Shown piece by piece: positions 2,227 to 45,518 of a DNA stretch of 64,000 nt. Every line of letters starts with the position of its first letter. The first letter of the stretch is position 1. Source of the DNA: an uncultured bacterium. Its GTDB lineage: Bacteria; Krumholzibacteriota; Krumholzibacteriia; WVZY01. Under the pieces are notes generated by a model, which saw only the letters and a list, made by a program, of their open reading frames with translations, had not been told where the DNA came from and searched no databases. The stretch covers positions 3,404-67,403 of the forward strand of contig CAZZKJ010000005.1 of the NCBI GenBank assembly GCA_964654695.1, in the 5' to 3' direction. Made by a program: the position numbers and the translations under genes.

Positions 2227-2416
2227 TTTGGTAATCCGCTTTCCATCCGTTAAATAATTCAGGCATTTTCGGGCTATTTTCAGCAAATTGCAAGCCAAAT
2301 CGTCTTTGGACTTGAAAAGCATGCCGGATAATTAACAGTAGAAAGATTGAACGTAAATAATGTATAATTAGGGATATAAAAACATACGATTCCCTCATTA
2401 TTTTGAAGGTATAAAA

Positions 2417-6001: not shown

Positions 6002-6034
6002 CGGCGTTTAGAATCATTTCATGGGGGTACTTGG

Positions 6035-6931
6035 ATGAAGCGATCGCTTTATAGCACGGAAGAGATAGGATTGAAGCCTGATGTATCAGGCAAAGTCAGG
6101 GACATATTTGATCTGGGCGATAAACTCCTCATAGTGGCAACCGACCGGATCAGCGCCTATGATTCCATTTTGCCGGATCCGATTCCCGGAAAGGGCGTCA
6201 TATTAACTCAGATGACGCTGGGATGGTATGAACATTTTGCAAACGAAATAAATACTCATTTCCTTACAAGCGAACTTGATGATTTCCCCGTTCCTTTTAA
6301 GAATCAAGTGTCACTAGATGGTAGAAGTATGTTGGTGAGCAAGGCCGAGCGTTTGGACGTGGAGTGTGTAGTCAGGGGGTACCTTGCCGGATCCGGATGG
6401 AAAGAATACACTTCTTCGGGCAAGATCTGCGGTATAAAGCTGCCGGAAGGCCTTCAAGAATCATCCGAACTCCCAAATCCTGTATTCACTCCCGCAACAA
6501 AAGCTGAAAGCGGGCATGATATCAACATAAGTTTTGATAAAATGGCGTCCATCGTTCCTGGAGGCATAGCTGAACAATTGAAAAATCTCAGTCTCGGAGT
6601 ATACAACCGGGCTCGAGACTATGCCGCCGCAGCCGGAATAATCCTGGCCGACACGAAGTTCGAATTTGGAATATTGGGAGGAGAAATCATCTTGATCGAT
6701 GAACTCTTATCGCCGGATTCATCTAGGTTTTGGCCCTCCGAGGATTATGAGCCCGGCAGGCCGCAAGCAAGTTACGATAAACAGTTCGTAAGAGATTATC
6801 TCGATCATATAGGGTGGGACCGCAATCCTCCGGCGCCGGCCCTGCCTCCGGACGTTATCGGGAAAACCATAGAGCGATACGAAGAAGCGAGCAAAATGCT
6901 TTTTCCAACCATAGAATACAAGGAGAATTAG
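6035..6931 (+). CDS. purC: SAICAR synthetase, long ~300-aa form
   Basis: GKVRDIFDLGDKLLIVATDRISAYD and downstream conserved blocks. Its length matches the long (eukaryote/Bacteroidetes-type) PurC. Confidence 0.9.
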   Translation: MKRSLYSTEEIGLKPDVSGKVRDIFDLGDKLLIVATDRISAYDSILPDPIPGKGVILTQMTLGWYEHFANEINTHFLTSELDDFPVPFKNQVSLDGRSMLVSKAERLDVECVVRGYLAGSGWKEYTSSGKICGIKLPEGLQESSELPNPVFTPATKAESGHDINISFDKMASIVPGGIAEQLKNLSLGVYNRARDYAAAAGIILADTKFEFGILGGEIILIDELLSPDSSRFWPSEDYEPGRPQASYDKQFVRDYLDHIGWDRNPPAPALPPDVIGKTIERYEEASKMLFPTIEYKEN

Positions 6932-6932
6932 A

Positions 6933-8495: not shown

Positions 8496-8517
8496 GATCC
8501 TCATACAGGAGAATTTT

Positions 8518-10056: not shown

Positions 10057-10155
10057 CAAATCCCATCGATAATAAAACCATACGTTTTCTGAATTAAAAA
10101 AAAGCAACCTTGATTGCGATCCAGGCGGATTAACCTCAAAAGACCGGCGGATTCG

Positions 10156-12495
10156 ATGTTCAACCGCTTTAAAGGGCTTATTATTTTATTCCTCCTTGTT
10201 TGTTTCAATTCGCCGGCATCATCCAGTTCAAATACGACAATTATAACCGCCTCCAAAGTTAACTGCGCCCTTGTTCTGGAAAGCTTCGGAGAAGTGGAGA
10301 GAGCCGAAGAAGTGATCGCCTCGCTGCCTCGCGACGCCGCCGGGATTGCACGGGTGCACGCCAGGCTTCTTGCAAAAATGGGTCTTTATGAACGCGCGGA
10401 CAGCGCCTATTCCCTGGCATGTGCTCAAATGAATGGCAAATCGCTTACGGAGCGGCAGCTTCAATGTTTTATTCATGCCGTGTATAGCCTGAATGCGGGA
10501 GACGGCAAAAAAGCGCTTCGTTATTTAGAGTTATTGGATTCACACTCGATTCCGACCTTAGAGGACTATATTATATTTGCAAGGATGAAGGCAAAAGCAC
10601 TTCAAGGAGATTACGAAAAGGCGGTCGAACTGGGTATAACCAAAATCAACGATGGGCTCTGCAGAACCTTGACGCCCGAATTCGAAGGAGAAGTTCTGAA
10701 ATGTTTATCGGCCGCTAATAATGATTCGCTTGCGTTGGTGGTAATATCATCATTGAAGAAAATATTAAAGAAGGATAAAAAGATAATTCCGTTCCTGCTG
10801 CAGGAGATAAATTTATCAATCACCGGTAGTAATCATAATAGAGCGCGTAAGGCGGCAATGGAGCTGATACAGGAATACCCGCGTTCGGACGCTGCTACCG
10901 AAGCAATTGAAATCTTATTGTCGAATTATCCATTATCGGATTTAAAAACTGATGAATTGATTCAATACTGCAAAATCCTGGTTGATCACAAAAAAAAGAT
11001 CACAGCGAAGAAATTTATCTCAGAGTTGGGAAAAAGATCTTTAAAAGAGACGGAGAGAGAGCATAAAAATTTATATGAAGGCATACTGTTGTATCATTAT
11101 GGCAGATACGAAAAGGCCTTAAAAATACTGAAATATGAATTCCAAAAACAAGAAATATTCTCCAAGTCGCTCATATGGAAGGCCAGAGCCTACAGAAAAC
11201 TCAAAAGATACCGTCTTGCCGCCGAGACATATGAATATTTCAGCAGGTATTATCCCAAGAATCCAACCGCGCCCGAAGCTCTGCTTGTCGCCGCGCATCT
11301 ATGGGAAAAGAACGGACACCATAGCAGATCCCGTTCGATAAGAACGGCCCTTGCCGACAAATATCCGGATAGTTACTACGGCGTGTCTGCAGCTTTGGAA
11401 AATGCATTTTATTTCATTGAGCGCAGGCAATATAGAAAAGGCGCAGAAATATTGAAAAACGCTTCCGAACTCTCCGGCAGGTCTTTTGAAGAATATTTCT
11501 ATTACATGGCGAGATGCTACGAGTACTCGGGGGAAAAACACCTTAGCTCGAAGGCTGCCGGCCGGCTTAATAAGATAAACCGCTGCTCTTTTTACATCGA
11601 ACCCGAAATTAAGAGCGGATTCAAGGCGCCGGCGCTGAGCAGCAGGGGAAGGGCGATTATGGACGGGGAACACGGTTTGATAAAAATACTGTCCGGGATC
11701 GAGCACGATAGAAATCGTGCTTATGCTTACATCGATAGTCTGGTTAGGATAACCGGACAGAGAGAAAAATCTTGGAAAAATAACAAGCACTTCGAATTGG
11801 GACGGCTTTTTCTGCAATCGGGTCTGATTGTCTGGGCTGAAAACGAACTCGGAGAAGCGATGAAGGATTTTCGAAGCAATCCCGCAGCCCTGAGCGCCCT
11901 GGCACGGATTTATGACGGCGCGGGAATGGTCTGGGAGAGTTTAAAAACATACGAGAGACTCAAGTTTATTCTGGCGAGAAGACATAGGATCTCAGTTGAT
12001 GACCGATTTGACATAGTGCTTTACCCTCTTCCTTTTCCCGGCATGGTATTGGAGAGGTGCATCCGCTATAACATACCTCCTAATCTCGCGTTTGCGCTTA
12101 TCAGGGAAGAAAGCCGGTTCCATGCAAAAGCTGTTTCCAGGGCGGGAGCTGTTGGATTGATGCAGCTTATGCCGGAAACCGGCTTACAACTGGCGGATGA
12201 ACTGGGATACGCAGTGGATGAGAGCATCCTGGTACTTCCGGAATTAAATATTGAATTGGGAATGCGTTACGCCTCGCGACTGTTGATGCTTTGCAAAGGC
12301 AGATACCACATGATGCTGGCTGCCTATAATGCAGGAATGAAAAACGCCAAGCGATGGTTTACGAAAAAGAACATGAACTGGAGTCTGCAATGGCAGGTAG
12401 ACCACATCGATTACAAAGAAACCAGGCAGTACGTTAAACGAATCGTAGAATCAGCGAACAGATATTCATTTCTATACGACTTTTCCGAGGAATAA
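10156..12495 (+). CDS. slt: Soluble lytic murein transglycosylase (Slt70-like): TPR/superhelical N-terminal region plus C-terminal SLT domain
   Basis: Signal peptide MFNRFKGLIILFLLVCF. C-terminal ...FALIREESRFHAKAVSRAGAVGLMQLMPETG...AAYNAGMKN. The ATG at 10156 is preferred over the upstream TTG at 10114. Confidence 0.8.
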   Translation: MFNRFKGLIILFLLVCFNSPASSSSNTTIITASKVNCALVLESFGEVERAEEVIASLPRDAAGIARVHARLLAKMGLYERADSAYSLACAQMNGKSLTERQLQCFIHAVYSLNAGDGKKALRYLELLDSHSIPTLEDYIIFARMKAKALQGDYEKAVELGITKINDGLCRTLTPEFEGEVLKCLSAANNDSLALVVISSLKKILKKDKKIIPFLLQEINLSITGSNHNRARKAAMELIQEYPRSDAATEAIEILLSNYPLSDLKTDELIQYCKILVDHKKKITAKKFISELGKRSLKETEREHKNLYEGILLYHYGRYEKALKILKYEFQKQEIFSKSLIWKARAYRKLKRYRLAAETYEYFSRYYPKNPTAPEALLVAAHLWEKNGHHSRSRSIRTALADKYPDSYYGVSAALENAFYFIERRQYRKGAEILKNASELSGRSFEEYFYYMARCYEYSGEKHLSSKAAGRLNKINRCSFYIEPEIKSGFKAPALSSRGRAIMDGEHGLIKILSGIEHDRNRAYAYIDSLVRITGQREKSWKNNKHFELGRLFLQSGLIVWAENELGEAMKDFRSNPAALSALARIYDGAGMVWESLKTYERLKFILARRHRISVDDRFDIVLYPLPFPGMVLERCIRYNIPPNLAFALIREESRFHAKAVSRAGAVGLMQLMPETGLQLADELGYAVDESILVLPELNIELGMRYASRLLMLCKGRYHMMLAAYNAGMKNAKRWFTKKNMNWSLQWQVDHIDYKETRQYVKRIVESANRYSFLYDFSEE

Positions 12496-16264: not shown

Positions 16265-18166
16265 ATGAAAAAGCAGATTATTTTCACTCCTCAGACCGAA
16301 ACGTCAAGGGATCTCTCGTATTCAGAGCAGGCGAGTTGCCGACAGAGTCTTCACATCCTGCTGCAGGATAGGGGTATTCAAAAGTACGGTTTCTTGCTCA
16401 GAATATACAGGGATGTAGTAGCTTCCTACCTTTCCTCCAGGGAGATCAAGAATCCAGAATCTTTTCTCGTTGAACTGGCGTCTTTGCTGGATAAAGCATC
16501 GCTTGACGAAAAACTCGATCTCGACGATTTCAGGGCTTTTGATGTATTCATCACAGTAAAGACGGCCGCCGCCGTTTATATTCTTACAAGTGACAAATCC
16601 AAAGTATGTTGCACAGGTGAAACCGGGATATGCACCATAGATTCCATAACCCATGGCAATGTCATTCGCGAAATCCGCGTCCCAGTGGACAATTCCCAGG
16701 TTGAACTTTTTCCAGGCAAGTTGAGCGAAACCGTTTCTCTTTTCTGTTTGCAATCACAAGAAGATGCTCCTGTTGAGCTTATCTTGGGTTTGGGAAAAAA
16801 CGAAATCAGCAAGATCAAAGAACACTTTCCAGGTGAAGGATATTCGAAATCCGCATCCGCCCAACCATCAAGAGAATGGGTGCCGGTTAAATTTTTGAAT
16901 AATAAAGTACTTTTCATATCGTTTTCCGCAGTCGGCGGCACGCTGCTGCCATACTCCATGCCTATTGAACAGGCCGGAGCAACACACAGAACGTTACCGA
17001 TAGTAATTACGGTTGCGGCGATTTTATTTGCTCTGGCTGCCGGAAGATGGATTTTAAAATCAAGCCGCAACCAGAAAGATAATGGCGCACTTACACAAAG
17101 GGCTTCGATTTCCGCAGAACCCGCCACCCTCCCGTCCATGCTTCCGTCGAGATCAATTGAAAGTAACATCCGGAACGATGGAAGTGCTGCGTTGACTATC
17201 GCTTGGCGGAGAAGCTTCACGAAGCCGGTGACGTCTTCTCCTGCAATCGTAAACGATCTTGTGGTGTTCGGGTGCAGAAATGACACCCTCTACGCGCTGG
17301 ATGCAGGAACGGGTTCAACAAAATGGTGTTTTGATTCAAAAGCAGGAATCGGAGCTTCACCGGTTATATCCGGAGATAGAATCGTTGCAGCGAATTATGA
17401 TGGAAAGATTTTTTGCTTGAACGCTGTGAAGGGCGATCGCCTTTGGGGAAAAAAGCTCTCGGGTAGAATCGTAAGCTCGCCGATTGCCGCAGATAACAAA
17501 GTTTTTGTCTGCAGTTATGATCATTATATTTATTGTTTTTCTATGAGTACAGGAGACCTGCTTTGGAAGTATAAAACCCAGAACATCATACGTGCAACCC
17601 CTCTGCTTGCCGGCAGGCTGCTGATATGCCCGTCCAACGACGGAGCCCTGCATGCTGTTTCTATTGGAACCGGAAAAGGCATTTGGAAGTATAAAATAAG
17701 CGGAGGTATTTCCAGCTCGCCGGCAGTTTCCGCCTCGATGATATTTGCGGGAAGCTCCGATGGGCATGTTTACGCGCTGGATGCTTCCAGCGGCCGGGTC
17801 AAATGGAAAACCAAAACCGGAGGAGCAATAAAGTCGGCTCTTGGCGTCTTTGGCAATAAATTGTACGCCGGTTCCAATGATGGACAAGTATATTGCCTGG
17901 ATACGAACGACGGATCGGTGCTGTGGACATTCAAAACGAGAGGTATTATTTTATCTCGACCTTATATCGACGGGGACAAAGTCTTCATAGGCTCTTACGA
18001 CGGCAACTTGTATATGCTGAATAGCGACGATGGAAAAATCGTGTGCAGCTATTCAACGGGAGGTGATATTTTTTCTTCTCCGTTGATTTTTAGAAACAAA
18101 GTTTATTTCGGCAATATGGACGGCCGTTTTTATTGCTTGAACCTGCAGCGGGGGGAGGGATCATAG
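16265..18166 (+). CDS. Membrane-anchored PQQ-like (BamB-type) beta-propeller protein with an uncharacterised ~230-aa N-terminal cytoplasmic domain
   Basis: Single TM segment (LPIVITVAAILFALAAGRWIL). Six to eight PQQ-like repeats (TLYALDAGTGSTKWCF, HVYALDASSGRVKWK, QVYCLDTNDGSVLWTF...). Confidence 0.7.
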   Translation: MKKQIIFTPQTETSRDLSYSEQASCRQSLHILLQDRGIQKYGFLLRIYRDVVASYLSSREIKNPESFLVELASLLDKASLDEKLDLDDFRAFDVFITVKTAAAVYILTSDKSKVCCTGETGICTIDSITHGNVIREIRVPVDNSQVELFPGKLSETVSLFCLQSQEDAPVELILGLGKNEISKIKEHFPGEGYSKSASAQPSREWVPVKFLNNKVLFISFSAVGGTLLPYSMPIEQAGATHRTLPIVITVAAILFALAAGRWILKSSRNQKDNGALTQRASISAEPATLPSMLPSRSIESNIRNDGSAALTIAWRRSFTKPVTSSPAIVNDLVVFGCRNDTLYALDAGTGSTKWCFDSKAGIGASPVISGDRIVAANYDGKIFCLNAVKGDRLWGKKLSGRIVSSPIAADNKVFVCSYDHYIYCFSMSTGDLLWKYKTQNIIRATPLLAGRLLICPSNDGALHAVSIGTGKGIWKYKISGGISSSPAVSASMIFAGSSDGHVYALDASSGRVKWKTKTGGAIKSALGVFGNKLYAGSNDGQVYCLDTNDGSVLWTFKTRGIILSRPYIDGDKVFIGSYDGNLYMLNSDDGKIVCSYSTGGDIFSSPLIFRNKVYFGNMDGRFYCLNLQRGEGS

Positions 18167-28947: not shown

Positions 28948-29880
28948 ATGAGCATTACCAGAAAGGATTTTATTTCTCTGGCTGATCATGACAGGAATGA
29001 GCTCGAAACGATTATTGAAGTGGCTTTAGAGCAAAAATGCCTTTTCGCCGCCGGGGCTTTGGAGCCTATCCTCACGGGCAAAACGCTTGCCTGCATTTTT
29101 CACAAACCGTCCCTGCGGACCAGGATAAGTTTTGAAACGGCTATGACCCATCTAGGCGGTTCATCCCTGTATATAACCGATAAAGAAGTCGGAGTGGGTT
29201 CCAGGGAAGCGCCCAAGGACGTGGCAAGGGTTCTTTCTCGTTATGTCGACGGAATAATGATAAGAACCTTCGAGCATGAATTGGTGGAAACACTTGCTCA
29301 CTGGGCCGATGTTCCGGTTATCAACGGTTTGACAGACCTCCTGCATCCATGTCAAATTATGGCGGATTTGTTGACGGTGCGGGAGAAACGTGGAAGTCTG
29401 GATAATATGACAGTCGTGTTTGTGGGGGATGGAAACAACGTGGCGCGCAGCTGGATAAACGCGTGCTCAAAATTCAAATTCAAATTAATTCTCGCATGCC
29501 CCGAAGGATTTGGACTGCAAAATAATTTCGTTGAAAGCGCTTTGGGGAAAGACAGGAAGCTCTATAGAGAAATTAATGACCCGGTTGATGCGGTTGTTTC
29601 CGCGGATGTGATTTACACTGATGTATGGGCTTCGATGGGTGAAGAATCTCGAGCTGCAGAGAAGAAAAAGCATTTTGAAACATTTCAATTAAACAAAGAT
29701 CTCTTGAAGAAAGCCCCGGCCGGTGCGCTGGTAATGCACTGCCTGCCGGCCCATCGCGGTGAAGAAATCACCGACGAAGTTATAGAGAGCGATAACAGCG
29801 TTGTTTTCGATCAAGCGGAAAACAGGCTTCATGCTCAAAGATCCCTGCTCGCTTTGCTCATGGCCCCGAAAGGCGGATGA
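28948..29880 (+). CDS. argF: Ornithine carbamoyltransferase (or a closely related carbamoyltransferase)
   Basis: STRTR-type carbamoyl-phosphate motif (PSLRTRISFE) and the HCLP motif (HCLPAHRGEE), which is typical of OTCase rather than ATCase. Confidence 0.8.
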   Translation: MSITRKDFISLADHDRNELETIIEVALEQKCLFAAGALEPILTGKTLACIFHKPSLRTRISFETAMTHLGGSSLYITDKEVGVGSREAPKDVARVLSRYVDGIMIRTFEHELVETLAHWADVPVINGLTDLLHPCQIMADLLTVREKRGSLDNMTVVFVGDGNNVARSWINACSKFKFKLILACPEGFGLQNNFVESALGKDRKLYREINDPVDAVVSADVIYTDVWASMGEESRAAEKKKHFETFQLNKDLLKKAPAGALVMHCLPAHRGEEITDEVIESDNSVVFDQAENRLHAQRSLLALLMAPKGG

Positions 29881-30953
29881 TAATGGGCAGGATTGGAATT
29901 ATTCTTCTGTTCCTGGTATCAATAGTTCTATCATGCGCGGTTCCGGTTCCTCCTTCCGGAGGTCCCGCGGATAAAACTCCGCCGCAAATTATTAGTACGG
30001 TTCCTTCCGAAGGAAGCTCGGGAGTTAACGTCGATTCTCAAATATCTTTCGAATTCAGCGAAAAAATGGCCAAGAATAAGGTCGAACGCCTGTTCGTCTC
30101 TTATCCCCGAATGGAGATTGGCGGCGCTGATTGGAGCGGCAATTCGTTAACCATCAGGCCCGGCGAACTTCTGGTAAGCGACACAACTTATGTAATTTCT
30201 CTCAAGAAAGGATTCAGGGACGCCCACAATGTAAAAAGCGAGAGCAGCTATCGGTTGGCCTTTGCGACTGGAACGCATATCGACAGCGGGTTCATAGAGG
30301 GTATTGTAAAATTCAGGAGACGTCCTTCATCATCGGCCGTTGTCAGGTGCTTTTTGTTGCCCAAAGATAGTTCTTTCGCTCCGGCCAGCGCCAGACCCGA
30401 TCGCGAGGCGGAAACGGATGACAAGGGTGTTTTCAGATTTGTCCGTTTACCAACTAATAATGCATCCTTCATAGTCTGGGGCTTTATGGATGCGAACGGC
30501 AATGCCGATTTTGAAAAAGGCAAGGAATTCGGCAATGTGCATCCGGATACAATCTTGCTGTCTACGAATGCTTATTCTTCTTCAGGATTGGTAATTGACA
30601 TAATAGATCCAACGGAGCCTGGAACCATATCAGGCTCTATCAGGAATGAAACGGGGGGAGATTCGCTTCCAGTCTCAGTGGGGCTTTACAGTTTCAGCGA
30701 TTCCATAGAGGCGGTATCATATTATAATTATTGCGACAAAGCGGGGAGCTTCAAATTTATGCGGATTAAAAGCGGTCAATATAGGCTGAAGGCGTTTATC
30801 GATATTTTGCGTGACAGTATATGCGGTTATTACAAGTGTTTCCAGGACACGTCAAAGATGTGCCGCGAACCCTGCGTTGAATACCCGGATTCTATAAACC
30901 TGGATCCCGGAGGGAATATTTTGTTAAAGACCTTAATTTTGAAAAAAGATTGA
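29877..30953 (+). CDS. Predicted lipoprotein with an N-terminal Ig-like (Big/SbsA-type) domain and carboxypeptidase-regulatory-like beta-sandwich repeats. Function unknown.
   Basis: Signal peptide plus a lipobox-like LSCA. The PPQIISTVPSEGSSGVNVDSQISFEFSEKM block is Ig-like. Overlaps the argF stop by 4 nt (ATGA). Confidence 0.5.
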   Translation: MIMGRIGIILLFLVSIVLSCAVPVPPSGGPADKTPPQIISTVPSEGSSGVNVDSQISFEFSEKMAKNKVERLFVSYPRMEIGGADWSGNSLTIRPGELLVSDTTYVISLKKGFRDAHNVKSESSYRLAFATGTHIDSGFIEGIVKFRRRPSSSAVVRCFLLPKDSSFAPASARPDREAETDDKGVFRFVRLPTNNASFIVWGFMDANGNADFEKGKEFGNVHPDTILLSTNAYSSSGLVIDIIDPTEPGTISGSIRNETGGDSLPVSVGLYSFSDSIEAVSYYNYCDKAGSFKFMRIKSGQYRLKAFIDILRDSICGYYKCFQDTSKMCREPCVEYPDSINLDPGGNILLKTLILKKD

Positions 30954-31810: not shown

Positions 31811-32710
31811 ATGCAGGTTAATAATCGAATGATCACATTTTCCGGTGCTTTCACCGCCCTTGTAACTCCAATGAGAAACGGGGAAATCGATACCGAGGCC
31901 TTTGAGAATCTATTGGAAAAACAGATCGCGGCAAAAATAGAAGGCGTCGTGGTTTGCGGGTGCACGGGAGAAGCGGCAACTCTATCTGTCAAAGAGCGTT
32001 TTCAACTTATAGAAACCGCCGTCAGAATATCGCGCAAACGAATCAGCGTCATTGCAGGAACGGGAACCAATTCTACTCAAGAAAGTATCGAACTTACCGG
32101 ACAGGCAAAGCAAATAGGCGCCGACGCCGCCATGCTGATTACTCCTTATTACAATAAGCCGACTCAGGAAGGGCTCTACAGGCACTTTATGTCCATAGCG
32201 GACGAAGTCGAAATACCAATGATCCTATATAATGTCCCATCTCGAACCGGCGTATGTCTCGAACCGGCGACCCTGGACAGGCTCTATGTATCACGCTCTT
32301 TCGCAGCCGTCAAGGAGGCCGGCGGCCGCGTTGATATTGTCAGCGATATCATATCAACATGTGATATTACGATACTCTCCGGCGATGATGCTTTGACGCT
32401 GCCAATGATGGCACTGGGTGCAAAAGGAGTGGTGTCGGTGATTTCGAATCTCGTACCCGATAAAATTCGTACTCTTGCAGAAAGCTTGCTGGAGGGAAAT
32501 TTGGGCATGGCCGGGCAAATTCATTATGAACTTTTGCCGCTGGTTAGGGCGGCCTTTATCGAAACCAATCCCGGTCCGATTAAAGCCATGCTGAATCAAA
32601 GAGGATTGATGGAAAACGAGCTTAGACCTCCACTGGCTCCGTTGGGGAAAGTAAGCCTGCAAAAATTGACGGGAGTTGTCGATGAATATTATTCCCATGA
32701 GGGCAGATGA
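31811..32710 (+). CDS. dapA: 4-hydroxy-tetrahydrodipicolinate synthase
   Basis: FTALVTPM...GVVVCGCTGEAATLS and conserved downstream blocks. Confidence 0.9.
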   Translation: MQVNNRMITFSGAFTALVTPMRNGEIDTEAFENLLEKQIAAKIEGVVVCGCTGEAATLSVKERFQLIETAVRISRKRISVIAGTGTNSTQESIELTGQAKQIGADAAMLITPYYNKPTQEGLYRHFMSIADEVEIPMILYNVPSRTGVCLEPATLDRLYVSRSFAAVKEAGGRVDIVSDIISTCDITILSGDDALTLPMMALGAKGVVSVISNLVPDKIRTLAESLLEGNLGMAGQIHYELLPLVRAAFIETNPGPIKAMLNQRGLMENELRPPLAPLGKVSLQKLTGVVDEYYSHEGR

Positions 32711-32714
32711 GAAC

Positions 32715-33524
32715 ATGCAGAAAAAGAACCGCCGGATTGGCTTGATCATATGCGGCGCCCGAGGAAGGATGGGCTCCCTGGTCTTTTCTTTGGCCGCAAG
32801 CGATCCACACTTCATAATCAAGGGATTGGTAGAACGCCCGGATCATTGTGATATCGGAAAGGAGATAATTCTTAACCCGGAAGGGGGAAAAAAGGAATCA
32901 ATAAAGATCAAACGCGATTTCCCAGACAGTATATGCAAGGAAGACATCGTAATTGATTTTTCAACCGGAAAATCTGTTCCCAATATACTGAAGTTGGTTG
33001 AAAAGCACCAAGCCAAATTTCTGTCCGGAACTACAGGAATGAATGGCGGTTGCCTTGAAAATATGCGGCGATATTCCACAAGGAGCGCGGTATTTCATGA
33101 TGCGAATATGAGTTTCGGTATCGCCTTGTTGAGAGACATAATGGAAAGTGCGGGCCCGCTTCTGAGAAACTCTTTCGATATAGAAATAGTTGAGCATCAT
33201 CATCGCTCCAAGGTTGACAAGCCCAGCGGCACGGCGCTTTTGCTCGCTTCCTCCTTGGCAGGGCATGCCGGCAATATGAAAAGCCATGGCGAAGCTGAGG
33301 ATACAAGGAGGCCTCAAATTCACATTCATTCTATAAGAGCCGGAGGCACTGCAGGCGATCACGAAGTAATTTGCTCTGCCGATGCAGAAATAGTAAGTTT
33401 CAAACATAGAGCTCTATCGAGAGAGATCTTTGCGCGCGGGGCGTTGAAGGCCGCCATGTTTTTGGCTCACAAAAAGAAAGGTTTCTTCTCGATGCGGGAT
33501 ATCGTGAAAGATAGAGATGCATAA
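32715..33524 (+). CDS. dapB: 4-hydroxy-tetrahydrodipicolinate reductase
   Basis: RIGLIICGARGRMG NAD(P)-binding motif. EIVEHHHRSKVDKPSGTA catalytic block. Start set to the ATG at 32715, 5 nt after the dapA stop. Confidence 0.85.
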   Translation: MQKKNRRIGLIICGARGRMGSLVFSLAASDPHFIIKGLVERPDHCDIGKEIILNPEGGKKESIKIKRDFPDSICKEDIVIDFSTGKSVPNILKLVEKHQAKFLSGTTGMNGGCLENMRRYSTRSAVFHDANMSFGIALLRDIMESAGPLLRNSFDIEIVEHHHRSKVDKPSGTALLLASSLAGHAGNMKSHGEAEDTRRPQIHIHSIRAGGTAGDHEVICSADAEIVSFKHRALSREIFARGALKAAMFLAHKKKGFFSMRDIVKDRDA

Positions 33525-36315
33525 AATTTCATTCCTCGTAATCGTCCTTCTCCTGTTTATTTTTCCCATTAAAAGCCTTTCCCAGTATCCTTTCGGCAAG
33601 AACAAGGTCCATTACACGAAAAAAGACTGGAAAGTGCTTGAAACCGAGCATGTGGATGTATACCACTACCCCAGTGAAAAGGATCTTATAGTTCTCATGG
33701 CTCCCATGATTGAAGAAACTTATTTGGAATACAGCAGATTATTCAATATTCAATTTCGCGGCCGGATGCCTTTGATTTTTTACAGCTCTCATTACGATTT
33801 TCAACAGACAAATATAATACCGTCTCTGATTTCCGATTTTACCGCCGGATTTACCGATCTGATCAAGGGAAGAATAGCCATTCCTTTTTCAGGCTCAATC
33901 GGAAGCCTCAGGCATGTTGTTAAGCATGAAATGGTTCATGCTTTCATGATTGAAAAACTTCATCAGGTGATGAACAAAAGAGGAAAATTCACTTATGCCC
34001 AACCTCCTCTGTGGTTGATTGAAGGGATGGCGGAATACATCGCCGATCCGAACTCCGACAGCAAGAGCTCAATGTTCGTTCGTGATGCCCTGCTCAATGA
34101 CAAGCTTCCTACATTGGAGAACATCTGGCGAATTGAGGGATCGTTCATGATGTACAAAGAAGGCGAGGCTGTCGTTCGATTCATCTCTAATAATTTCGGC
34201 GATGAAGCGATTATAAAAATAATGGATAACTGGTGGAGAAGCGATAATTTGAATGTGATACTCAAATCAACGATAAATATGAACCTGACGGAACTGAACG
34301 ACGCGTTCATGAAGAGTATCAAAAGAAGATATTACCCTGCGGTTCTGTCCGCCGGATTCGTTCAGGACGAAGGGAAGCAGCTTACGAAACCCCGCTCCTT
34401 TCATTCCCGTCCGGTCGTACTTGAAGCGGGTGACGGACGCATCGTGGTTAGCGCTCTCAGAGCCGAGAGCGGGGTGATAAACATTTCCAGGATTACGTTT
34501 GATGAAAACGGCCTGGTTTCGGAGAAAACGATAATAGAAGGCGGGCGCTCATCGGCCTTCGAATCAATACCCGCGCTTCGAAGCAAAATGGATGTCAAGG
34601 GCGACACACTTCTATTCGTTTCGAAAAAACAGGCTTCGGATGCAGTTTATTTATGGAACTGGAGACAAAATAAACGTTTAACAAGTTATTCTTTCGATAA
34701 CCTGAGTGTAATCTCTTCGCCCACATTATCGCCGGAAGGTAATAGAATTGTTTTCAGCGCCATAGATACAACAGGCTTGATGGACATATATCTTTATGAT
34801 ATTTCGCAAAACAAGCTCCAACGTCTCACCGATGACCCGTATAGTGAGGATAATCCCGATTTTCATCCCACGAGAAATATTATCCTCTTCAGCTCCGACA
34901 GGTGCCGTCCCGGGGTTAGGAACGCCGGAGGATTGTTTTTGATGAATCTGGATACGCGAGATATAACCCCGCTCAGTTCCTGCAATTCAAATTATGCCGA
35001 TCCCGTCTGGTCACCCGACGGCAAAAGCATTTTGTTCAGTTCCGACTCAGATGGAATTTTCAATATTTATCAGTACCGAGACGGTTCGGAAACCCGTCAA
35101 ACGAACGTCCTTGGAGGTGCGACCTCGCCATCATTTCTGCCGGATGGATCCGGTTTTGTAGCATCGTGTTATACGAATGCGGAGTTCCATATATTTTACT
35201 TTCCCTTTATACGGGAGGGAAGGCAGCGCAAACTCATCGCCGCAAAAACCGATTCTATCCCGAACAGTTGGCTAGATGAATACAAAAATGAATTCAATTA
35301 TGAAAGCCGCGATTACAAGATGAAGCTCGGATTGGACCTGCTGGGCACAGGCATAGCAGTTGATCCCGATTTCGGCGATATAGGAAACGGAGCGGAAATG
35401 GTTTTTACCGATCTTATGGGGAATCACCAGTTTTACGCCTTCATCGGCAATAGCTCCCAGGGACTGGATGATTTCTGGAAGAGTGTCAATATCGGAATCA
35501 CGTACGTCAATTTGAGCCGCAGGTTGAACTTTATGCTGGGAGCTTTTCATCTTACGTCTTTTTGGGGAGATTATTTTTCGCTTTTTCGATCGGAAAGAAG
35601 ATATGGGGGTGTAGTAGGGGCAAGCTATCCGTTCAGCAAATTTTCACGAGCGGAAGGAACCTTGGTCGTGCGCGCCGTCGAGAGGGAAACGGATTTCGGC
35701 GATATTTTTACGGAAAGCCAAAGCAGTGTTCTGGCGACGTCTTTTTTGACCTATGTTGCCGATAATACGCTGTGGACCATAGGGGGCCCCCTGACAGGAA
35801 CCAGGTACTACGTAACATCCGGGAACACGGCGGACCTGCTGGGCAGGGGTTTTGAGAGCACTACGCTTCATCTTGATTTAAGGAAATACTTTAAGTTATC
35901 GCAGCGCGTGCTGCTCGCTGAGAGATTTATAAACCGCAATAGCTGGGGAAGCGATCTTCAGCTTTTTTATCTCGGAGGCGATTGGAGCCTGCGGGGATAT
36001 GATTTCAGGGAGTTCGTAGGCAGAAGCATATATCTCGTCAACAGCGAACTGAGATTCCCTCTTATAGATCATTTCAGCTTGTCGTTTCCATTCGGGACGA
36101 TTGAAATGCCATCCTTCCGGGGCGCGGTTTTCTTCGATGCCGGCAAAGCCGATCGTTTCATTGCCGATACCGGTTGGCTGGGAGCGGTCGGCGTCGGAGT
36201 TGAGCTCAACTTGGGATTTGCCCCGGTGATTCGAGTTAACTTTACACGCGTTACGGATTTCGATAATATTTCCAATGATACGAAATTCGGGTTGTTCATA
36301 GGATACAATTACTGA
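33517..36315 (+). CDS. Outer-membrane fusion protein: signal peptide, HExxH zincin-like metallopeptidase domain, PD40/TolB-like beta-propeller, and a C-terminal Omp85 (BamA/TamA-family) beta-barrel
   Basis: Signal peptide MHKISFLVIVLLLFIFPIKSLS. HEMVH at nt 33925-33939 followed by EGMAEY (a gluzincin-like third ligand). PD40-type repeats (FHPTRNIILFSSDR; PVWSPDGKSILFSSDSDG). C-terminal barrel with an LGGDWSLRGYDF (VRGF/Y-like) motif, ending ...GLFIGYNY. Overlaps the dapB stop by 8 nt. Confidence 0.7.
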   Translation: MHKISFLVIVLLLFIFPIKSLSQYPFGKNKVHYTKKDWKVLETEHVDVYHYPSEKDLIVLMAPMIEETYLEYSRLFNIQFRGRMPLIFYSSHYDFQQTNIIPSLISDFTAGFTDLIKGRIAIPFSGSIGSLRHVVKHEMVHAFMIEKLHQVMNKRGKFTYAQPPLWLIEGMAEYIADPNSDSKSSMFVRDALLNDKLPTLENIWRIEGSFMMYKEGEAVVRFISNNFGDEAIIKIMDNWWRSDNLNVILKSTINMNLTELNDAFMKSIKRRYYPAVLSAGFVQDEGKQLTKPRSFHSRPVVLEAGDGRIVVSALRAESGVINISRITFDENGLVSEKTIIEGGRSSAFESIPALRSKMDVKGDTLLFVSKKQASDAVYLWNWRQNKRLTSYSFDNLSVISSPTLSPEGNRIVFSAIDTTGLMDIYLYDISQNKLQRLTDDPYSEDNPDFHPTRNIILFSSDRCRPGVRNAGGLFLMNLDTRDITPLSSCNSNYADPVWSPDGKSILFSSDSDGIFNIYQYRDGSETRQTNVLGGATSPSFLPDGSGFVASCYTNAEFHIFYFPFIREGRQRKLIAAKTDSIPNSWLDEYKNEFNYESRDYKMKLGLDLLGTGIAVDPDFGDIGNGAEMVFTDLMGNHQFYAFIGNSSQGLDDFWKSVNIGITYVNLSRRLNFMLGAFHLTSFWGDYFSLFRSERRYGGVVGASYPFSKFSRAEGTLVVRAVERETDFGDIFTESQSSVLATSFLTYVADNTLWTIGGPLTGTRYYVTSGNTADLLGRGFESTTLHLDLRKYFKLSQRVLLAERFINRNSWGSDLQLFYLGGDWSLRGYDFREFVGRSIYLVNSELRFPLIDHFSLSFPFGTIEMPSFRGAVFFDAGKADRFIADTGWLGAVGVGVELNLGFAPVIRVNFTRVTDFDNISNDTKFGLFIGYNY

Positions 36316-36339: not shown

Positions 36340-38052
36340 ATGCGGTGGTCCAGGTATTACCTGCCTACATACAAAGAAACGCCCAGCGACGCAGAGATTC
36401 CCAGCCACAAACTTATGCTCAGGGCGGGAATGATAAAAAATCTCACATCAGGCGTCTATACGTTTTTGCCCATGGGATTGCGGGTATTGAGAAAAATCGA
36501 AGACATAACGCGTGAAGAGATGGACGCTATCGGCTGTCAGGAAGTTTTAATGCCCGTACTACATCCAAGCGAGTTATATGAAGAAAGCGGCCGTTTCAAG
36601 CATTTCGGCCCCGAGCTGTTCAAACTGTATGACAGGAAGAAAAGACTGTTCGCCCTCGGCCCCACTCACGAGGAAGTAGTAACCGATCTGGCCAGGGTTG
36701 AAATAAACAGTTATAAGCAGCTTCCGCAGTGCCTCTATCAGATATTAACAAAATTCCGCGATGAAATCAGGCCGCGTTTTGGTGTTATGCGGGCACGGGA
36801 ATTCATTATGAAGGACGCCTATAGTTTTCATGCGACCAGTGATTCCCTAGATGAAATGTACGAAAAAATGGCCGGGGCATATAAGCGCATACTCGACCGC
36901 TGCGGATTAGAAAATGTCATGGTCGAAGCCGATGCCGGCAAGATAGGCGGAGATGTAAACCACGAATTCGTCGTAATTGCCGATAAAGGTGAAAGTGAAA
37001 TTCTCAGATGTGAATGCGGTTATACGGCTAATTCCGAGAGAGCAGAGAGCCTGGGCAAAAAAATCGAACAGAAGGAAATACCCCTCGATAAACCGGAAAT
37101 GGTCGATACTCCCGGAAAGAAAACCGTTGAAGAGGTTTGCACGTTTCTCAACTGCAGCCCATCGCAACTGGTCAAAACGCTTCTGTTTAAGAGCGCAGAC
37201 CGTATCCTTGCCGTACTGGTTCCCGGCGACAGGACGCTAAACGAGAATAAGCTGATAAAATTGCTCGGCGATCCGTATATAGAACCACTCGATGAAGCCG
37301 GCGTAGAGGAAACAACGAAAGCCGAGGTTGGATTTGCCGGCCCCGTCGGATTGGACCCCAGCGTAAAGATTATCGCGGATCAGCTGCTCGAAAAATTCGA
37401 GGGAATGATTGTCGGTGCGAATGCAACCGATGCTCACATGCGCGGTGTGAAAATGGGACGCGATTTCAAGCCTGAATTAACTGCGGACATAAGCGCGGCC
37501 GAACCGGGGGATACGTGCAGGAAATGCCGGAAAGGAAAACTCCTTCTGCAGCGCGGCGTTGAACTCGGTCATATATTCAAACTGGACAAAAAATACAGCG
37601 AAAGCATGAACGCAACTTATCTCGATGACAAAAGCAGAGAGAATTTCTTCATAATGGGGTGCTATGGATTCGGAATCTCGCGAGCAGTGGCCGCTGCAAT
37701 AGAACAGCACTATGACGATAAAGGGATAATTTGGCCTCCGGCTATCAGCCCTTTTCACGTCGTGATAACTCCTCTCAATATGAACGACGCACGCATAATC
37801 GAATTTGCGGAATCAATAAACGATACTATGGTACGATCGGGCATTGAAACCCTTTTCGACGACCGCGACCTCCGGCCCGGGCGCAAGTTCAAGGACGCGG
37901 ATCTCCTGGGAATTCCTTTGAGGATAACAATCGGCCGGAAAAGCCTCGAGGAAAACAAAGTCGAACTTTATTACAGGGCGGAGGACAGAACTACCATGCT
38001 GGCAAGGGCCGATATAGGAAATGCGGTCAATGATTTTTATGGAACCGCCTAA
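36340..38052 (+). CDS. proS: Prolyl-tRNA synthetase, bacterial type with editing (INS) domain
   Basis: MRWSRYYLPTYKETPSDAEIPSHKLMLRAGMIKNLTSGVYTFLPMGLRVLRKIE. Class II motifs and a C-terminal anticodon-binding domain. Confidence 0.95.
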   Translation: MRWSRYYLPTYKETPSDAEIPSHKLMLRAGMIKNLTSGVYTFLPMGLRVLRKIEDITREEMDAIGCQEVLMPVLHPSELYEESGRFKHFGPELFKLYDRKKRLFALGPTHEEVVTDLARVEINSYKQLPQCLYQILTKFRDEIRPRFGVMRAREFIMKDAYSFHATSDSLDEMYEKMAGAYKRILDRCGLENVMVEADAGKIGGDVNHEFVVIADKGESEILRCECGYTANSERAESLGKKIEQKEIPLDKPEMVDTPGKKTVEEVCTFLNCSPSQLVKTLLFKSADRILAVLVPGDRTLNENKLIKLLGDPYIEPLDEAGVEETTKAEVGFAGPVGLDPSVKIIADQLLEKFEGMIVGANATDAHMRGVKMGRDFKPELTADISAAEPGDTCRKCRKGKLLLQRGVELGHIFKLDKKYSESMNATYLDDKSRENFFIMGCYGFGISRAVAAAIEQHYDDKGIIWPPAISPFHVVITPLNMNDARIIEFAESINDTMVRSGIETLFDDRDLRPGRKFKDADLLGIPLRITIGRKSLEENKVELYYRAEDRTTMLARADIGNAVNDFYGTA

Positions 38053-44156: not shown

Positions 44157-45518
44157 GTGATAAACAATAATCTAATTAAAGGATTCCAGATAGCCATAGA
44201 CGGACCGTCGGGCTCCGGCAAAACCACGACGGCACGAATGGTTGCATCGAGGTTGGGATTGACCCATGTGGATACGGGTGCCATGTACAGGGCAGTAACA
44301 CTGCAGGCGCTAAAAGAAAAATGTGATCTTGAGGACTCGGAACATCTTGGTGGACTGGCTGCAAAGTCAATAATAAAGTTCAAGGAATCGGCCGCAGGTC
44401 CGCAAAAAGTCTTTTTGAACGACATTGATGTTACTGTCGATATTCGCACACCTGAAGTTTCCAGACACGTTTCTCTGGTTAGTTCGCATAAATCTGTAAG
44501 GCGCGTTATGGCCCGCCTGCAACGCGTTATGGCCTCTCGCGGCGGTGTGGTCCTTGAAGGAAGGGATATAGGAAGCGTCATTCTGCCGTGCGCTGAAATA
44601 AAAATATTCCTTGTTGCTTCAATTGAGGAAAGAGCTCGCAGGCGCCAGCTGGAATTCGAAGAAAATGGAATAGACAAACCTCTGACAGAAATAAAAGAAG
44701 ATATAGCCAAAAGGGACAATCTTGATTCTTCGAGGGAAATGAGTCCTCTTAAGAAACCGATAGGGTCGATGACTATAGATACCACCGATTTATCGATCGA
44801 AGAGCAAGTGCAGGCGGTGATATCACATGCAAGGCATACGTCCGAAAAGCTGGAACTGCTCCAAGCAGGTAAAAACACGTTGAGAAGGCGCTTCATATTC
44901 AGATTCGCCCAGGGCTTGATAAGATCTTTTTTTAGAGCAATTTGGGGCGTAAAGATTATCCGCGAGATAAATCTGGATTTGAACGAGAACTACATCTTTG
45001 CCTGCAATCATATTTCATACATGGATCCCCCTTTAATAGGTTCTTTTCTTCCGAGGGAAATTCATTTCCTGGCAAAAACCGAGCTTTTCAAAAATAAGTT
45101 GTTCTCCAGACTTATACGGTCCTTCAATGCCGTTCCCATCAAGCGGGATTCTTTTGACCGTGGAGCTATGAAATCTGTGCTTTCGTTGCTGACTAGAGGT
45201 GATTCACTGATGCTTTTTCCGGAAGGCACCAGATCCATGGGAAACGACCTGGGAAAACCGAAAAACGGAGTCGGGTACCTGGCCCTGAATTCCTCAATAT
45301 CTGTCGTACCTGTTTATGTCCAAGGCAGCAATAAACTTATCGCCGCGCTCTTCAGAAAACCGCGCTTAGTAGTGGCGGTTGGTAAGCCGATTCGGCTGAG
45401 CGATCCCGCAATTGAGAACTGTAAAAACAGTTCAGGTTATAATGATTACAGCTTGATGGTAATGGAAGCCATTGCGGCGTTGAAGGAGCTTGCGAGCCCC
45501 CATCCCTGCAGTACATGA
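44157..45518 (+). CDS. cmk: Bifunctional fusion: cytidylate kinase (N-terminal) plus 1-acyl-sn-glycerol-3-phosphate acyltransferase (C-terminal)
   Basis: Cmk P-loop IAIDGPSGSGKTT...DTGAMYRAV. The C-terminal half carries the acyltransferase HxxxxD (NHISYMD, nt 45006-45026) and FPEGTRS motifs. GTG start. Confidence 0.8.
   Translation: MINNNLIKGFQIAIDGPSGSGKTTTARMVASRLGLTHVDTGAMYRAVTLQALKEKCDLEDSEHLGGLAAKSIIKFKESAAGPQKVFLNDIDVTVDIRTPEVSRHVSLVSSHKSVRRVMARLQRVMASRGGVVLEGRDIGSVILPCAEIKIFLVASIEERARRRQLEFEENGIDKPLTEIKEDIAKRDNLDSSREMSPLKKPIGSMTIDTTDLSIEEQVQAVISHARHTSEKLELLQAGKNTLRRRFIFRFAQGLIRSFFRAIWGVKIIREINLDLNENYIFACNHISYMDPPLIGSFLPREIHFLAKTELFKNKLFSRLIRSFNAVPIKRDSFDRGAMKSVLSLLTRGDSLMLFPEGTRSMGNDLGKPKNGVGYLALNSSISVVPVYVQGSNKLIAALFRKPRLVVAVGKPIRLSDPAIENCKNSSGYNDYSLMVMEAIAALKELASPHPCST

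Follow-up and report, generated by a model that had tools for sequence, protein, structure and literature searches.

The window, that is the whole stretch of 64,000 nucleotides of DNA that was analysed, contains a gene whose 932-aa product is, judged on its sequence, an orthologue in the WD40-Omp85 subfamily, a group whose architecture is already known. According to the best-supported reading, to which we give about an even chance, this protein would be a peptidase anchored in the outer membrane and facing the periplasm, acting on unfolded envelope proteins; its topology, substrates and partnerships are what we infer below, while the architecture, the family membership, the conserved catalytic and barrel motifs and the patterns of gene neighbourhood are shown.

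Outer-membrane biogenesis is centred on Omp85 proteins; to our knowledge, mechanisms are known only for the members that bear POTRA domains (BamA, TamA, TpsB and PlpD). Here the POTRA is swapped for an apparently active protease and a propeller, an architecture held across at least 463 FCB species. If it is true that the protease acts on OMP clients, envelope quality control would be solved here in a new way, and the protein could serve as a target in Bacteroidota-related organisms. The BAM complex of FCB bacteria was itself recently shown to be unusual (PMC12611786). The proposal offers testable handles, namely the invariant catalytic residues and the cultured Caldithrix abyssi DSM 13497 (H1XRH5), which has the full three-gene module described below; the candidate partner proteins are absent from the published description of the family (PMC4104836).

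The gene and its family

The gene is real and conserved, judging from its 1078 homologues, the best 120 of which are all full length at about 930 aa. Its ATG at 33517 lies within gatagagATGcaTAA and produces an 8-nt overlap with dapB, whose stop codon occupies 33522-33524, while the ATG of proS at 36340 follows 24 nt past the TGA stop of the gene. The 932-aa frame at 33517-36315, the start codon overlapping the dapB stop and the distance to proS had all been given in the original prediction, and agree with the ORF list and translation and with the sequence.

32676..33524, forward strand: dapB, the upstream gene (TIGR00036, 3e-48; sequence)
33517..36315, forward strand: the whole gene, 932 aa, WD40-Omp85 subfamily member with peptidase, propeller and Omp85 barrel (ORF list and translation, full-length homologues)
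36340..38052, forward strand: proS, the downstream gene, after a 24-nt spacer (Proline-tRNA ligase, 1e-225; sequence)

The same prediction had suggested that this could be an uncharacterised protease. Its architecture, however, is already recognised: WD40-Omp85 ('WD40-like') proteins have been known since 2014 as a subfamily of the Omp85/TpsB superfamily, catalogued by bioinformatics by Heinz & Lithgow (PMC4104836), and a 2024 paper characterises this subfamily by its 'divergent WD40 and peptidase domains' (PMC11358297). In the supplement of the 2014 study, C. abyssi H1XRH5 is listed in the WD40-like column of Table S1 and the Pfam profile of the cluster is given in Table S2 as PF01103 plus PF07676 repeats; the peptidase appears solely in the 'best aminopeptidase hit' column of Table S3, and the main text considers the propeller only, as a 'BamA-BamB fusion' (PMC4104836). 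Our protein aligns end to end with H1XRH5 (P0390; 33% identity, E 6e-179, residues 10-932 of the 932-aa protein) and shares with it both this Pfam profile and the domain order, with an aminopeptidase-like domain N-terminal to a TolB-like PD40 propeller, then an Omp85 barrel and no POTRA; there is no structural difference between the two.

Relatives are encoded in at least 463 species genomes of the FCB superphylum, and the peptidase domain was found in 850 clusters (50% identity, E<=1e-30), most of the best 150 being 900-1100 aa long. From these sequences, the family is widespread and its architecture constant. The WD40-Omp85 family is common in Bacteroidota-related phyla. We found no functional study of it in the literature.

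Domain architecture

The features of the protein were located with HMM searches, cross-phylum conservation and an AlphaFold2 model of the 932-aa protein (pLDDT 79.8, pTM 0.77).

33517..33582, forward strand: signal peptide, residues 1-22 (MHKISFLVIVLLLFIFPIKSLS), read from the sequence
33583..33615, forward strand: conserved mature N-terminus Q-[YF]-x-F-G-[KR]-N-K-V-x-Y (cross-phylum conservation 0.72)
33628..34386, forward strand: clan-MA gluzincin peptidase domain, residues 38-290
33925..33939, forward strand: HEMVH zinc-binding and catalytic motif, residues 137-141, with His137, Glu138 and His141 (conservation)
34021..34038, forward strand: EGMAEY, with Glu169 as putative third zinc ligand on the 'glutamate helix' (conservation, profile alignment)
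34150..34158, forward strand: invariant Met212-Tyr213-Lys214 (81 of 81 sequences)
34402..35232, forward strand: six-bladed TolB/PD40-type beta-propeller, residues 296-572 (AlphaFold2, Pfam, NCBIfam, Foldseek, PDB)
35233..35325, forward strand: linker, residues 573-603, with a short helix at 584-590 and no POTRA (AlphaFold2 model, Pfam)
35326..36312, forward strand: 16-stranded Omp85-type barrel, residues 604-932 (Pfam PF01103, Foldseek, AlphaFold2 strand count)
35971..36006, forward strand: loop-6 motif LGGDWSLRGYDF, the Omp85 (V/I/L)RG(Y/F) signature (conservation, loop position)
36130..36144, forward strand: FFDAG, the FxDxG motif on a late barrel strand (conservation)

The domain reading of the original prediction thus proved correct by HMM searches and structure prediction: signal peptide, zincin domain with HEMVH at 33925-33939 and EGMAEY about 28 aa further on in the translation, several PD40/TolB blades, no clear POTRA run, and a C-terminal 16-strand Omp85 region with a loop-6 signature and an aromatic C-terminus. 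The HExxH region folds as a peptidase, and the C-terminal third is an Omp85-type barrel rather than a generic porin or a non-barrel domain.

Concerning the N-terminus, 14-45 hydrophobic residues stand ahead of a conserved Gln in 70 related loci. The mature N-terminus is the segment of highest conservation across phyla; despite this, its pLDDT is below 50 in both structure models.

The peptidase is modelled as an alpha/beta domain with a thermolysin-like fold in which one helix bears HExxH and the helix after it the Glu ligand, as in clan MA(E) gluzincins, and its fold matches protein and peptide hydrolases of families M30, M9 and M1. At the sequence level, Peptidase_MA_2 reaches 22.2 bits, under the Pfam threshold of 32.4, the flagellinolysin HExxH family of NCBIfam matches at 3e-11, and the M1 enzyme matched in a sequence-profile search of the PDB, aminopeptidase A, has an E-value of only 0.12, so that the assignment rests on the fold and on motif conservation. 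HEMVH is invariant wherever the alignment covers the position, including 24 of 24 sequences from other phyla, and little or no variation is seen at E169, G170, A172 and E173; the EGMAEY stretch is aligned by profile with WLNEGFA of M1 aminopeptidase A. By analogy with M1 enzymes, Tyr213 is a candidate for stabilising the transition state. The invariance of H137, E138, H141, E169 and M212-Y213-K214 in 81 proteins of several phyla makes it likely that the enzyme is active.

Compared with the other clan MA(E) gluzincins (M1, M9 collagenases, M30 hyicolysin/lugdulysin, Peptidase_MA_2), the protein is set apart by its spacing, HExxH-x27-E, Glu169 lying 28 residues past His141. M1 enzymes have HExxH-x18-E. 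Moreover, G-F-[TF]-[DE] stands where M1 has GxMEN, the other M1 domains are missing and Pfam gave no Peptidase_M1 match, which places the protein outside that family.

The propeller comprises 24 strands in the AlphaFold2 model, six blades of four strands each. TolB, another six-bladed PD40 propeller, is its best match in both sequence and fold: besides PD40 in Pfam (1.2e-12), we obtained TolB sequence matches in the PDB, a Foldseek match to TolB at 1e-11 and a partial match to the NCBIfam TolB model TIGR02800 (5e-28; 98 bits against a cutoff of 343, only propeller positions 201-299 matching). The protein differs from TolB in that the TolB N-terminal domain is absent and the propeller is internal in an outer-membrane protein. 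The linker that follows, about 30 residues long, is poorly conserved (0.33) and is equally short in other phyla; no Pfam POTRA family matches the 932-aa protein even at E<=1, nor was a POTRA found between cargo and barrel in any of the 81 proteins.

The barrel is modelled with 16 long strands (residues 604-930), and Omp85 PF01103 matches residues 692-930 with 27.5 bits, above the gathering threshold of 24, and Omp85_fam of NCBIfam gives 2e-8; against barrel-only structures, Foldseek gives TM-scores of 0.74 for TamA and 0.64-0.65 for BamA. The long loop 812-836, which carries the loop-6 motif, lies between strands 11 and 12, comparable to loop 6 of BamA, and is followed by FxDxG. Arg826 of this loop is invariant and Gly827 and Tyr828 are kept in most sequences; F872 and D874 are invariant where covered, G876 is found in 70 of the 81, and both G929, four residues from the C-terminus, and the C-terminal aromatic are conserved. 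In BamA the FxDxG motif partners loop 6, and the corresponding Gly has a role as well. The conservation of these positions, and an overall barrel conservation (0.57) close to that of the peptidase (0.60), suggest that the barrel is likely functional. BamA and TamA share the 16-strand barrel, loop-6 RGY, FxDxG and the C-terminal aromatic, whereas their one to five POTRA domains are replaced here by peptidase and propeller; the NCBIfam BamA model was not among the matches, and TamA scored 15 bits against a cutoff of 625.

Candidate partners

In other phyla the next gene encodes, in 20 of 23 loci and often overlapping the stop codon, a PQQ_2/BamB-like lipoprotein (a PQQ propeller). It is followed in 13 of the 23 by a gene for a protein that has a signal peptide and, at its C-terminus, a membrane helix, and that is PEGA-containing in several loci; with these two elements, this third protein has to be anchored in the inner membrane and face the periplasm. 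The cultured C. abyssi has the same module of H1XRH5-type gene, BamB-like lipoprotein and membrane-anchored protein. From this gene order we take the BamB-like lipoprotein and the small membrane-anchored protein encoded downstream to be its probable partners in most other FCB phyla. The window copy, from a Latescibacterota/Krumholzibacteriota-type genome, lies in a housekeeping block, in contrast to that of C. abyssi, which precedes the BamB-like lipoprotein gene; neither partner gene adjoins it here or elsewhere in the phylum, and the 64 kb yielded no counterpart of the third gene.

Within this phylum, a different lipoprotein is a possible lineage-specific partner on the basis of synteny:

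29877..30953, forward strand: lipoprotein with lipobox VLSC and an Ig-like Big_5 domain; further matches, of carboxypeptidase-regulatory-like type, are weak

Almost every in-phylum locus retains it as part of the syntenic block, and in the loci L061/L063 its gene is directly upstream of the peptidase-barrel gene, with a 4-nt overlap.

Proposed function

Under the preferred reading, the Sec signal peptide would be removed, leaving the conserved mature N-terminus, and the BamA/TamA-like 16-strand barrel would be placed in the outer membrane. The six-bladed TolB-type propeller and the gluzincin zinc peptidase, apparently catalytically intact, would replace the POTRA and lie in the periplasm, the compartment from which every Omp85 barrel starts on its N-terminal side. 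Access to the active site would be limited by the propeller to unfolded chains or peptides, as in tricorn and S9 peptidases. Unfolded envelope polypeptides would be cleaved on the inner surface of the outer membrane, a step in the quality control or processing of proteins of the outer membrane or the periplasm. Beyond anchoring the protein, the barrel may also take hold of client beta-strands, since the motifs of a working Omp85 barrel are retained in it.

Periplasmic orientation is favoured by the propeller, nearest to periplasmic TolB in NCBIfam, PDB and Foldseek comparisons, by the short and poorly conserved connection to strand 1 without POTRA, and by the BamB-like lipoprotein and membrane-helix protein encoded next to it in other phyla. 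It should be noted that the Flavobacterium BAM complex has extracellular lipoprotein subunits and that FCB lipoproteins are often surface-exposed (PMC12611786), so that a BamB-like partner is no proof of a periplasmic location. The quality-control role is proposed by functional analogy with BepA at BAM, likewise a zinc protease located at an Omp85 machine, in OMP quality control (PMC13478230, PMC8423444); BepA is an M48 periplasmic metalloprotease of an unrelated family and a separate soluble TPR protein, not fused to a barrel.

The parallel with PlpD (type Vd) drawn in the original prediction leads to a different possibility, self-export, in which peptidase and propeller would be threaded through their own barrel and displayed or released, for example for peptide nutrients. 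PlpD and FplA, too, have an enzyme at the N-terminus and an Omp85 barrel at the C-terminus, the same two options were raised by Heinz & Lithgow for Omp85-'Metallo' fusions (PMC4104836), FCB bacteria put many lipoproteins and enzymes on their surface (PMC12611786), and 30 residues with a short helix are not obviously too short for the barrel lumen. However, the cargo is a gluzincin and propeller and not a patatin lipase, and the parallel fails at the single POTRA between cargo and barrel, absent according to Pfam, AlphaFold2 and the linkers of other phyla. Also the weak conservation of the linker, the TolB type of the propeller and the alpha-helical anchor of the third module protein, which implies a periplasmic component, speak against export, and an in-phylum housekeeping block together with a constant cross-phylum architecture is unlike typical nutrient-scavenging or virulence proteases. 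Having found in this analysis no indication that peptidase or propeller is exported, we consider self-export unlikely.

Alternatively, the protein could be a specialised Omp85 assembly or translocation machine, whose barrel, as the working part, inserts or exports particular clients that the peptidase matures by removing an extension, instead of degrading those that fail, with propeller and BamB-like lipoprotein as docking platforms in place of POTRA. The loop-6 RGY, FxDxG and near-C-terminal Gly kept as in BamA, the BamB-like gene adjoining in most phyla and the BamA-BamB-like platform proposed by Heinz & Lithgow (PMC4104836) agree with it; furthermore, the canonical Flavobacterium BAM is without BamB (PMC12611786), and the BamB-like lipoprotein may thus belong to the peptidase-barrel protein. 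Against it, the peptidase is most like broad-specificity M1, M9 and M30 enzymes and the partner genes are unlinked in the window's own phylum. The same evidence fits this machine and the periplasmic quality-control peptidase and cannot separate them; taken by itself, we judge the machine quite improbable. We would put forward with similarly low confidence a broader proposal, that the protein joins the BamB-like lipoprotein and the membrane-anchored small protein in an undescribed FCB-wide envelope machine, a degradative or processing counterpart of BAM in which the barrel seam would capture beta-strand clients and pass them through the propeller gate to the zinc peptidase, the Big_5 lipoprotein being the partner in the window's phylum.

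Linkage to dap genes

The coupling to dapB had been read as a hint of a peptidoglycan or DAP-related role. In such a role, DAP-containing cell-wall peptides would be the substrate of the peptidase or, in a Tol-Pal-like variant, the propeller would bind Pal-like lipoproteins, and the location within a dapF-dapA-dapB cluster would be accounted for. The overlapping start codon, the presence of dapF upstream in most genomes of the phylum and the TolB-like propeller fit such a role, which is nevertheless highly improbable, given that dapA-dapB occurs in no more than about a dozen in-phylum loci out of some 55 (elsewhere dapF or another gene is upstream), that the linkage is absent in 22 of 22 loci from other phyla, where the neighbours are different envelope genes, and that the peptidase fold matches M30, M9 and M1, which are not the usual cell-wall peptidase families. 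The block hslU-argF-lipoprotein-dapF-X-proS-xerD is confined to Latescibacterota/Krumholzibacteriota-type genomes and also holds trpS and scpA, so that it mixes mutually unrelated genes (hslU, argF, proS, xerD, trpS, scpA), and the 64-kb window consists of housekeeping genes that run almost all in one direction. Gene order shows the dap linkage to be synteny limited to a single phylum, as part of a long housekeeping array.

Gene and predicted structure

In the original prediction this gene was read as an open reading frame of 932 codons that overlaps dapB, is followed closely by proS and carries the motifs HEMVH and EGMAEY, and this reading of the sequence is accurate. The features are as follows.

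33517..36315, + strand: whole reading frame, 932 residues, from the ORF list and its translation
33583-33615, + strand: mature N-terminus, residues 23-33, where conservation across phyla peaks
33925-33939, + strand: HEMVH, residues 137-141
Residues 819-830 of the protein: LGGDWSLRGYDF
Upstream gene: dapB (TIGR00036, 3e-48)

The ATG lies within ...gatagagATGcaTAA... and overlaps the TAA stop of dapB by 8 nt, while the TGA stop occupies 36313-36315 and the ATG of proS is found 24 nt downstream. EGMAEY starts at Glu169, 28 residues past His141, and the protein ends in ...IGYNY. The dapB frame as listed has a TTG start at 32676, and its first 35 nt (32676-32710) are shared with the end of dapA; the dapB model match starts only at residue 22, and the real start of dapB may be further downstream.

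Pfam profiles gave a PD40 match (1.2e-12), an Omp85 match (PF01103, 27.5 against a gathering score of 24, residues 692-930) and a Peptidase_MA_2 score of 22.2, under its threshold of 32.4; POTRA families gave no match in the window protein even at E<=1. NCBIfam added a partial TolB-propeller match (5e-28), a flagellinolysin HExxH family (3e-11) and Omp85_fam (2e-8). An AlphaFold2 model was built from a 40-sequence alignment (mean pLDDT 79.8, pTM 0.77). It begins with a signal helix, followed by an alpha/beta domain (38-290) whose helices 128-154 and 165-176 bear HExxH and Glu169, respectively. Residues 296-572 form 24 strands in six groups of four, that is, a six-bladed propeller, and a linker of about 30 residues with one short helix leads to 16 long strands between residues 604 and 930. 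The sole long loop of this barrel (812-836), between strands 11 and 12, bears the RGY motif and takes the position of loop 6 in BamA. When compared with the PDB by Foldseek, the propeller matched TolB (about 1e-11) and the C-terminal third matched TamA and BamA barrels, the TM score being 0.74 for TamA 8us4, a barrel-only structure, and 0.64-0.65 for the BamA barrels. The model and Foldseek therefore give an Omp85-type barrel and a zincin domain, as originally proposed, and neither another kind of C-terminal third nor a non-peptidase fold around HExxH; the PD40/TolB-type blades and the lack of a run of POTRA repeats were likewise confirmed.

Membership of a known Omp85 subfamily

The Omp85/TpsB superfamily was divided by Heinz and Lithgow in 2014 into ten bacterial subfamilies, one of which, called 'WD40-Omp85' or 'WD40-like', comprises Omp85 barrels with a TolB-like propeller and without POTRA; in Table S2 of that survey the WD40-like cluster has PF01103 together with PF07676 repeats (PMC4104836). 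The peptidase is absent from the main text of the survey, and the column 'best aminopeptidase hit' of its Table S3 reports Phyre2 confidences near 99 to 1z5h, 4kxd, 3qnf and 4ar1 (PMC4104836). A 2024 paper on the subfamily mentions 'divergent WD40 and peptidase domains' (PMC11358297). A Calditrichaceae homologue, used as query, led to the 90% cluster containing UniRef100_H1XRH5, from Caldithrix abyssi DSM 13497, which stands in the WD40-like column of Table S1 (PMC4104836) and is 33% identical to the window protein over residues 10-932 (E 6e-179).

The window protein is a new member of this known, functionally uncharacterised subfamily, so the architecture itself is no discovery. The original description of it as uncharacterised holds for the function, since for the peptidase-propeller-Omp85 family we found in the literature only the 2014 survey and the papers citing it, and no functional study of any member; it does not hold for the architecture, which had been catalogued in 2014. 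The present analysis places the protein directly in the family, shows that its catalytic and barrel motifs are conserved across phyla, finds six blades and no POTRA in a confident model and points out an invariant mature N-terminus. It also offers a route to function in the form of a conserved downstream module of a lipoprotein and a membrane-anchored protein.

In Table S1, similar accessions stand in successive rows of the WD40-like column, namely H1XP27, H1XQ58, H1XRH5 and H1Y197 in one run and D0MCT8, D0MEQ5, D0MFK1 and D0MJF6 in another (PMC4104836). Such runs of similar accessions, of which H1XRH5 was compared with the window protein, suggest about four WD40-like paralogues in some cultured organisms. 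The idea that the window protein replaces BamA was not adopted: the 2014 survey has BamA across Gram-negative genomes generally, with the exceptions in Table S4 (PMC4104836). Within the window no canonical BamA was found.

Conservation across phyla

The window protein was aligned with the proteins of 80 species-representative loci (81 sequences), 24 of which belong to lineages just 33-36% identical to it. Where the position is covered, little or no variation was seen at His137, Glu138, His141, Glu169, Gly170, Ala172, Glu173, Met212-Tyr213-Lys214 and Gly216. The strand before the active-site helix carries a G-F-[TF]-[DE] motif, which could, like GxMEN in M1 enzymes, bind the N-terminus of the substrate. 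In the barrel, Arg826 of loop 6, Phe872 and Asp874 of FxDxG, Gly929 four residues from the end and the terminal aromatic residue are kept across the alignment. Mean conservation is 0.60 in the peptidase, 0.57 in the barrel, 0.49 in the propeller and 0.33 in the linker, so that the barrel comes close to the peptidase and exceeds propeller and linker. Together with the conserved motifs, these values speak for a working enzyme and against a barrel that serves only as an anchor.

Conservation is highest (0.72) right after the signal peptide, in the mature N-terminus Q-[YF]-x-F-G-[KR]-N-K-V-x-Y, despite a pLDDT below 50 in both models. This stretch could serve as a plug or propeptide, bind a partner or begin with a pyroglutamate.

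Distribution and the downstream module

A protein database search with the window protein gave 1078 matches, the best 120 of which are all about 930 aa long, 44-63% identical and, where named, from Latescibacterota or Krumholzibacteria. At least 463 loci in GTDB species genomes encode a relative; among those listed are Ignavibacteria, KSB1, Zixibacteria, Kryptonia, Marinimicrobia, Calditrichaceae, Bacteroidota/'Cytophagia' and Chitinivibrionia, their full-length identity being 33-36%. When the peptidase domain was used by itself as a profile, 850 clusters (50% identity) reached E<=1e-30. Of the best 150, most have lengths of 900-1100 aa, and the domain always starts at about residue 20-45; the peptidase type therefore occurs almost exclusively in the Omp85 fusion.

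In other phyla the fusion gene is mostly followed by a module of candidate partner genes (loci L055-L080, and L081 of C. abyssi). The next gene in 20 of 23 such loci encodes a propeller protein of about 380 aa of the PQQ_2 (BamB) family (matches of 1.6e-41 and 4.1e-38), with a lipoprotein signal and a lipobox cysteine, whose start often overlaps the stop of the fusion gene. A protein of about 255 aa comes next in 13 of the 23, with an N-terminal signal peptide, a C-terminal hydrophobic helix and a conserved YDR-like motif before this helix; both representatives scanned contain a PEGA domain, and a GWxTD-domain protein sometimes follows. Cultured C. abyssi has the same layout, the PQQ_2 gene sharing its start position with the stop of the H1XRH5 gene.

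CM001402.1 (locus L081), 6001-8826: Omp85 fusion gene (H1XRH5)
CM001402.1 (locus L081), 8826-9959: PQQ_2 protein, 377 aa
CM001402.1 (locus L081), 9959-10543: 194-aa protein, signal peptide, C-terminal tail as in the 255-aa proteins

No publication describing this three-gene module was found in the literature. The BAM complex purified from Flavobacterium johnsoniae contains BamA, BamD, BamG, BamH, BamM and BamP and no BamB (PMC12611786); the BamB-like lipoprotein may therefore belong with an Omp85 paralogue of the present type, and not with BAM.

Candidate partners in the window

In the phylum of the window the PQQ_2 and PEGA partner genes are not adjacent to the fusion gene, and a motif search of the window for the tail of YDR and membrane helix found none. 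A tblastn search of the window with the BamB-like and PEGA proteins found only the first of the following two proteins.

16265-18166, + strand: PQQ protein, 633 aa, after TPR and DnaJ-TPR genes and before secA
29877-30953, + strand: Big_5 lipoprotein, 358 aa, VLSC lipobox, between argF and dapF

The 633-aa protein shares 27-28% identity with the BamB-like lipoproteins found outside the phylum and has a C-terminal PQQ_2/BamB-type propeller. It was rejected as their orthologue, being no lipoprotein: its N-terminal region of about 240 residues, which has no signal peptide and is apparently cytoplasmic, is followed by a membrane helix at about 243-263. The 358-aa protein, whose start codon overlaps the stop of argF, has a Big_5 Ig-like domain; its matches to fn3_3 and CarboxypepD_reg (carboxypeptidase-regulatory-like) are weak. 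Nearly all loci of the phylum retain it in the block, two to four genes upstream of the fusion gene, and in two divergent loci it stands immediately upstream (L061 and L063, with a 4-nt overlap in L063). Since it belongs to the envelope whereas the housekeeping genes around it encode cytoplasmic proteins, it may be a partner.

Proposed topology and function

The window protein is an outer-membrane Omp85 barrel that has no POTRA and carries a TolB-type propeller and a gluzincin whose catalytic site appears intact. We infer with moderate confidence that peptidase and propeller face the periplasm: strand 1 of Omp85 barrels starts on the periplasmic side, the linker leading to it here is short and variable, the propeller is most closely related to periplasmic proteins, and one conserved partner is anchored in the membrane by an alpha-helix. 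The lipoprotein partner does not settle the topology, since surface lipoproteins are common in these phyla (PMC12611786). In the periplasmic orientation the propeller would, on the model of tricorn and S9 peptidases, let in unfolded chains only, and the enzyme would then cut unfolded envelope polypeptides at the outer membrane, in quality control or processing. For this explanation as a whole the chances appear about even, and quality control as the specific role is proposed tentatively. Export of peptidase and propeller in the manner of type Vd systems, which the layout had originally suggested, is improbable, since that class has a POTRA whereas the window protein has none.

The dap genes and the housekeeping neighbourhood

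The coupling to dapB had also been taken as a hint of a peptidoglycan or DAP-related envelope role. The overlap is real, but the linkage is local synteny. When the neighbouring proteins of the window were compared by tblastn with the 80 loci, the block hslU-argF-(358-aa protein)-dapF-[dapA-dapB]-fusion gene-proS-xerD-(trpS)-scpA was found only in loci of the Latescibacterota/Krumholzibacteriota type; about a dozen of these have dapA-dapB, and in most loci of this type dapF adjoins the fusion gene upstream. The start codon touches or overlaps the upstream gene, whichever gene that is, and none of 22 loci from other phyla has a dap or proS neighbour. From 2417 to 63587 nearly all genes of at least 200 aa lie on the + strand, tightly packed or overlapping, and are housekeeping genes (purH, guaA, secA, topA, hslU, argF, the dap genes, proS, xerD, trpS, scpA, S1, mutS and mutL among them), so that adjacency here says little about function. 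Nor do the genes of the block (hslU, argF, dapF, proS, xerD and others) have a function in common. The dap context is thus uninformative, and we give low weight to the peptidoglycan/DAP idea.

Some Krumholzibacteria loci have a gap of 2 kb between the fusion gene and proS, where partner genes were ruled out: the gap holds an unrelated minus-strand ORF.

Locus L021, 8795-10648, - strand: 617-aa ORF between the fusion gene and proS, in one Krumholzibacteria sub-clade

Similar gaps occur in L022, L024, L027, L029, L030, L032-L034, L036, L037 and L041. A promoter and terminator scan, whose models do not cover FCB-type promoters, gave counts that differ from the shuffled expectation by no more than about 1.5 sd; no operon boundaries were drawn from it.

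Two lytic transglycosylases with SLT domains, one with three LysM repeats and the other with TPR repeats, lie far from the fusion gene, at 364-2322 (- strand) and 10114-12495 (+ strand). Finally, the single ORF at 44157-45518 (+ strand) combines a cytidylate kinase domain (residues 12-225) with an acyltransferase domain (PF01553, 272-388) and appears to be a cmk-acyltransferase fusion.
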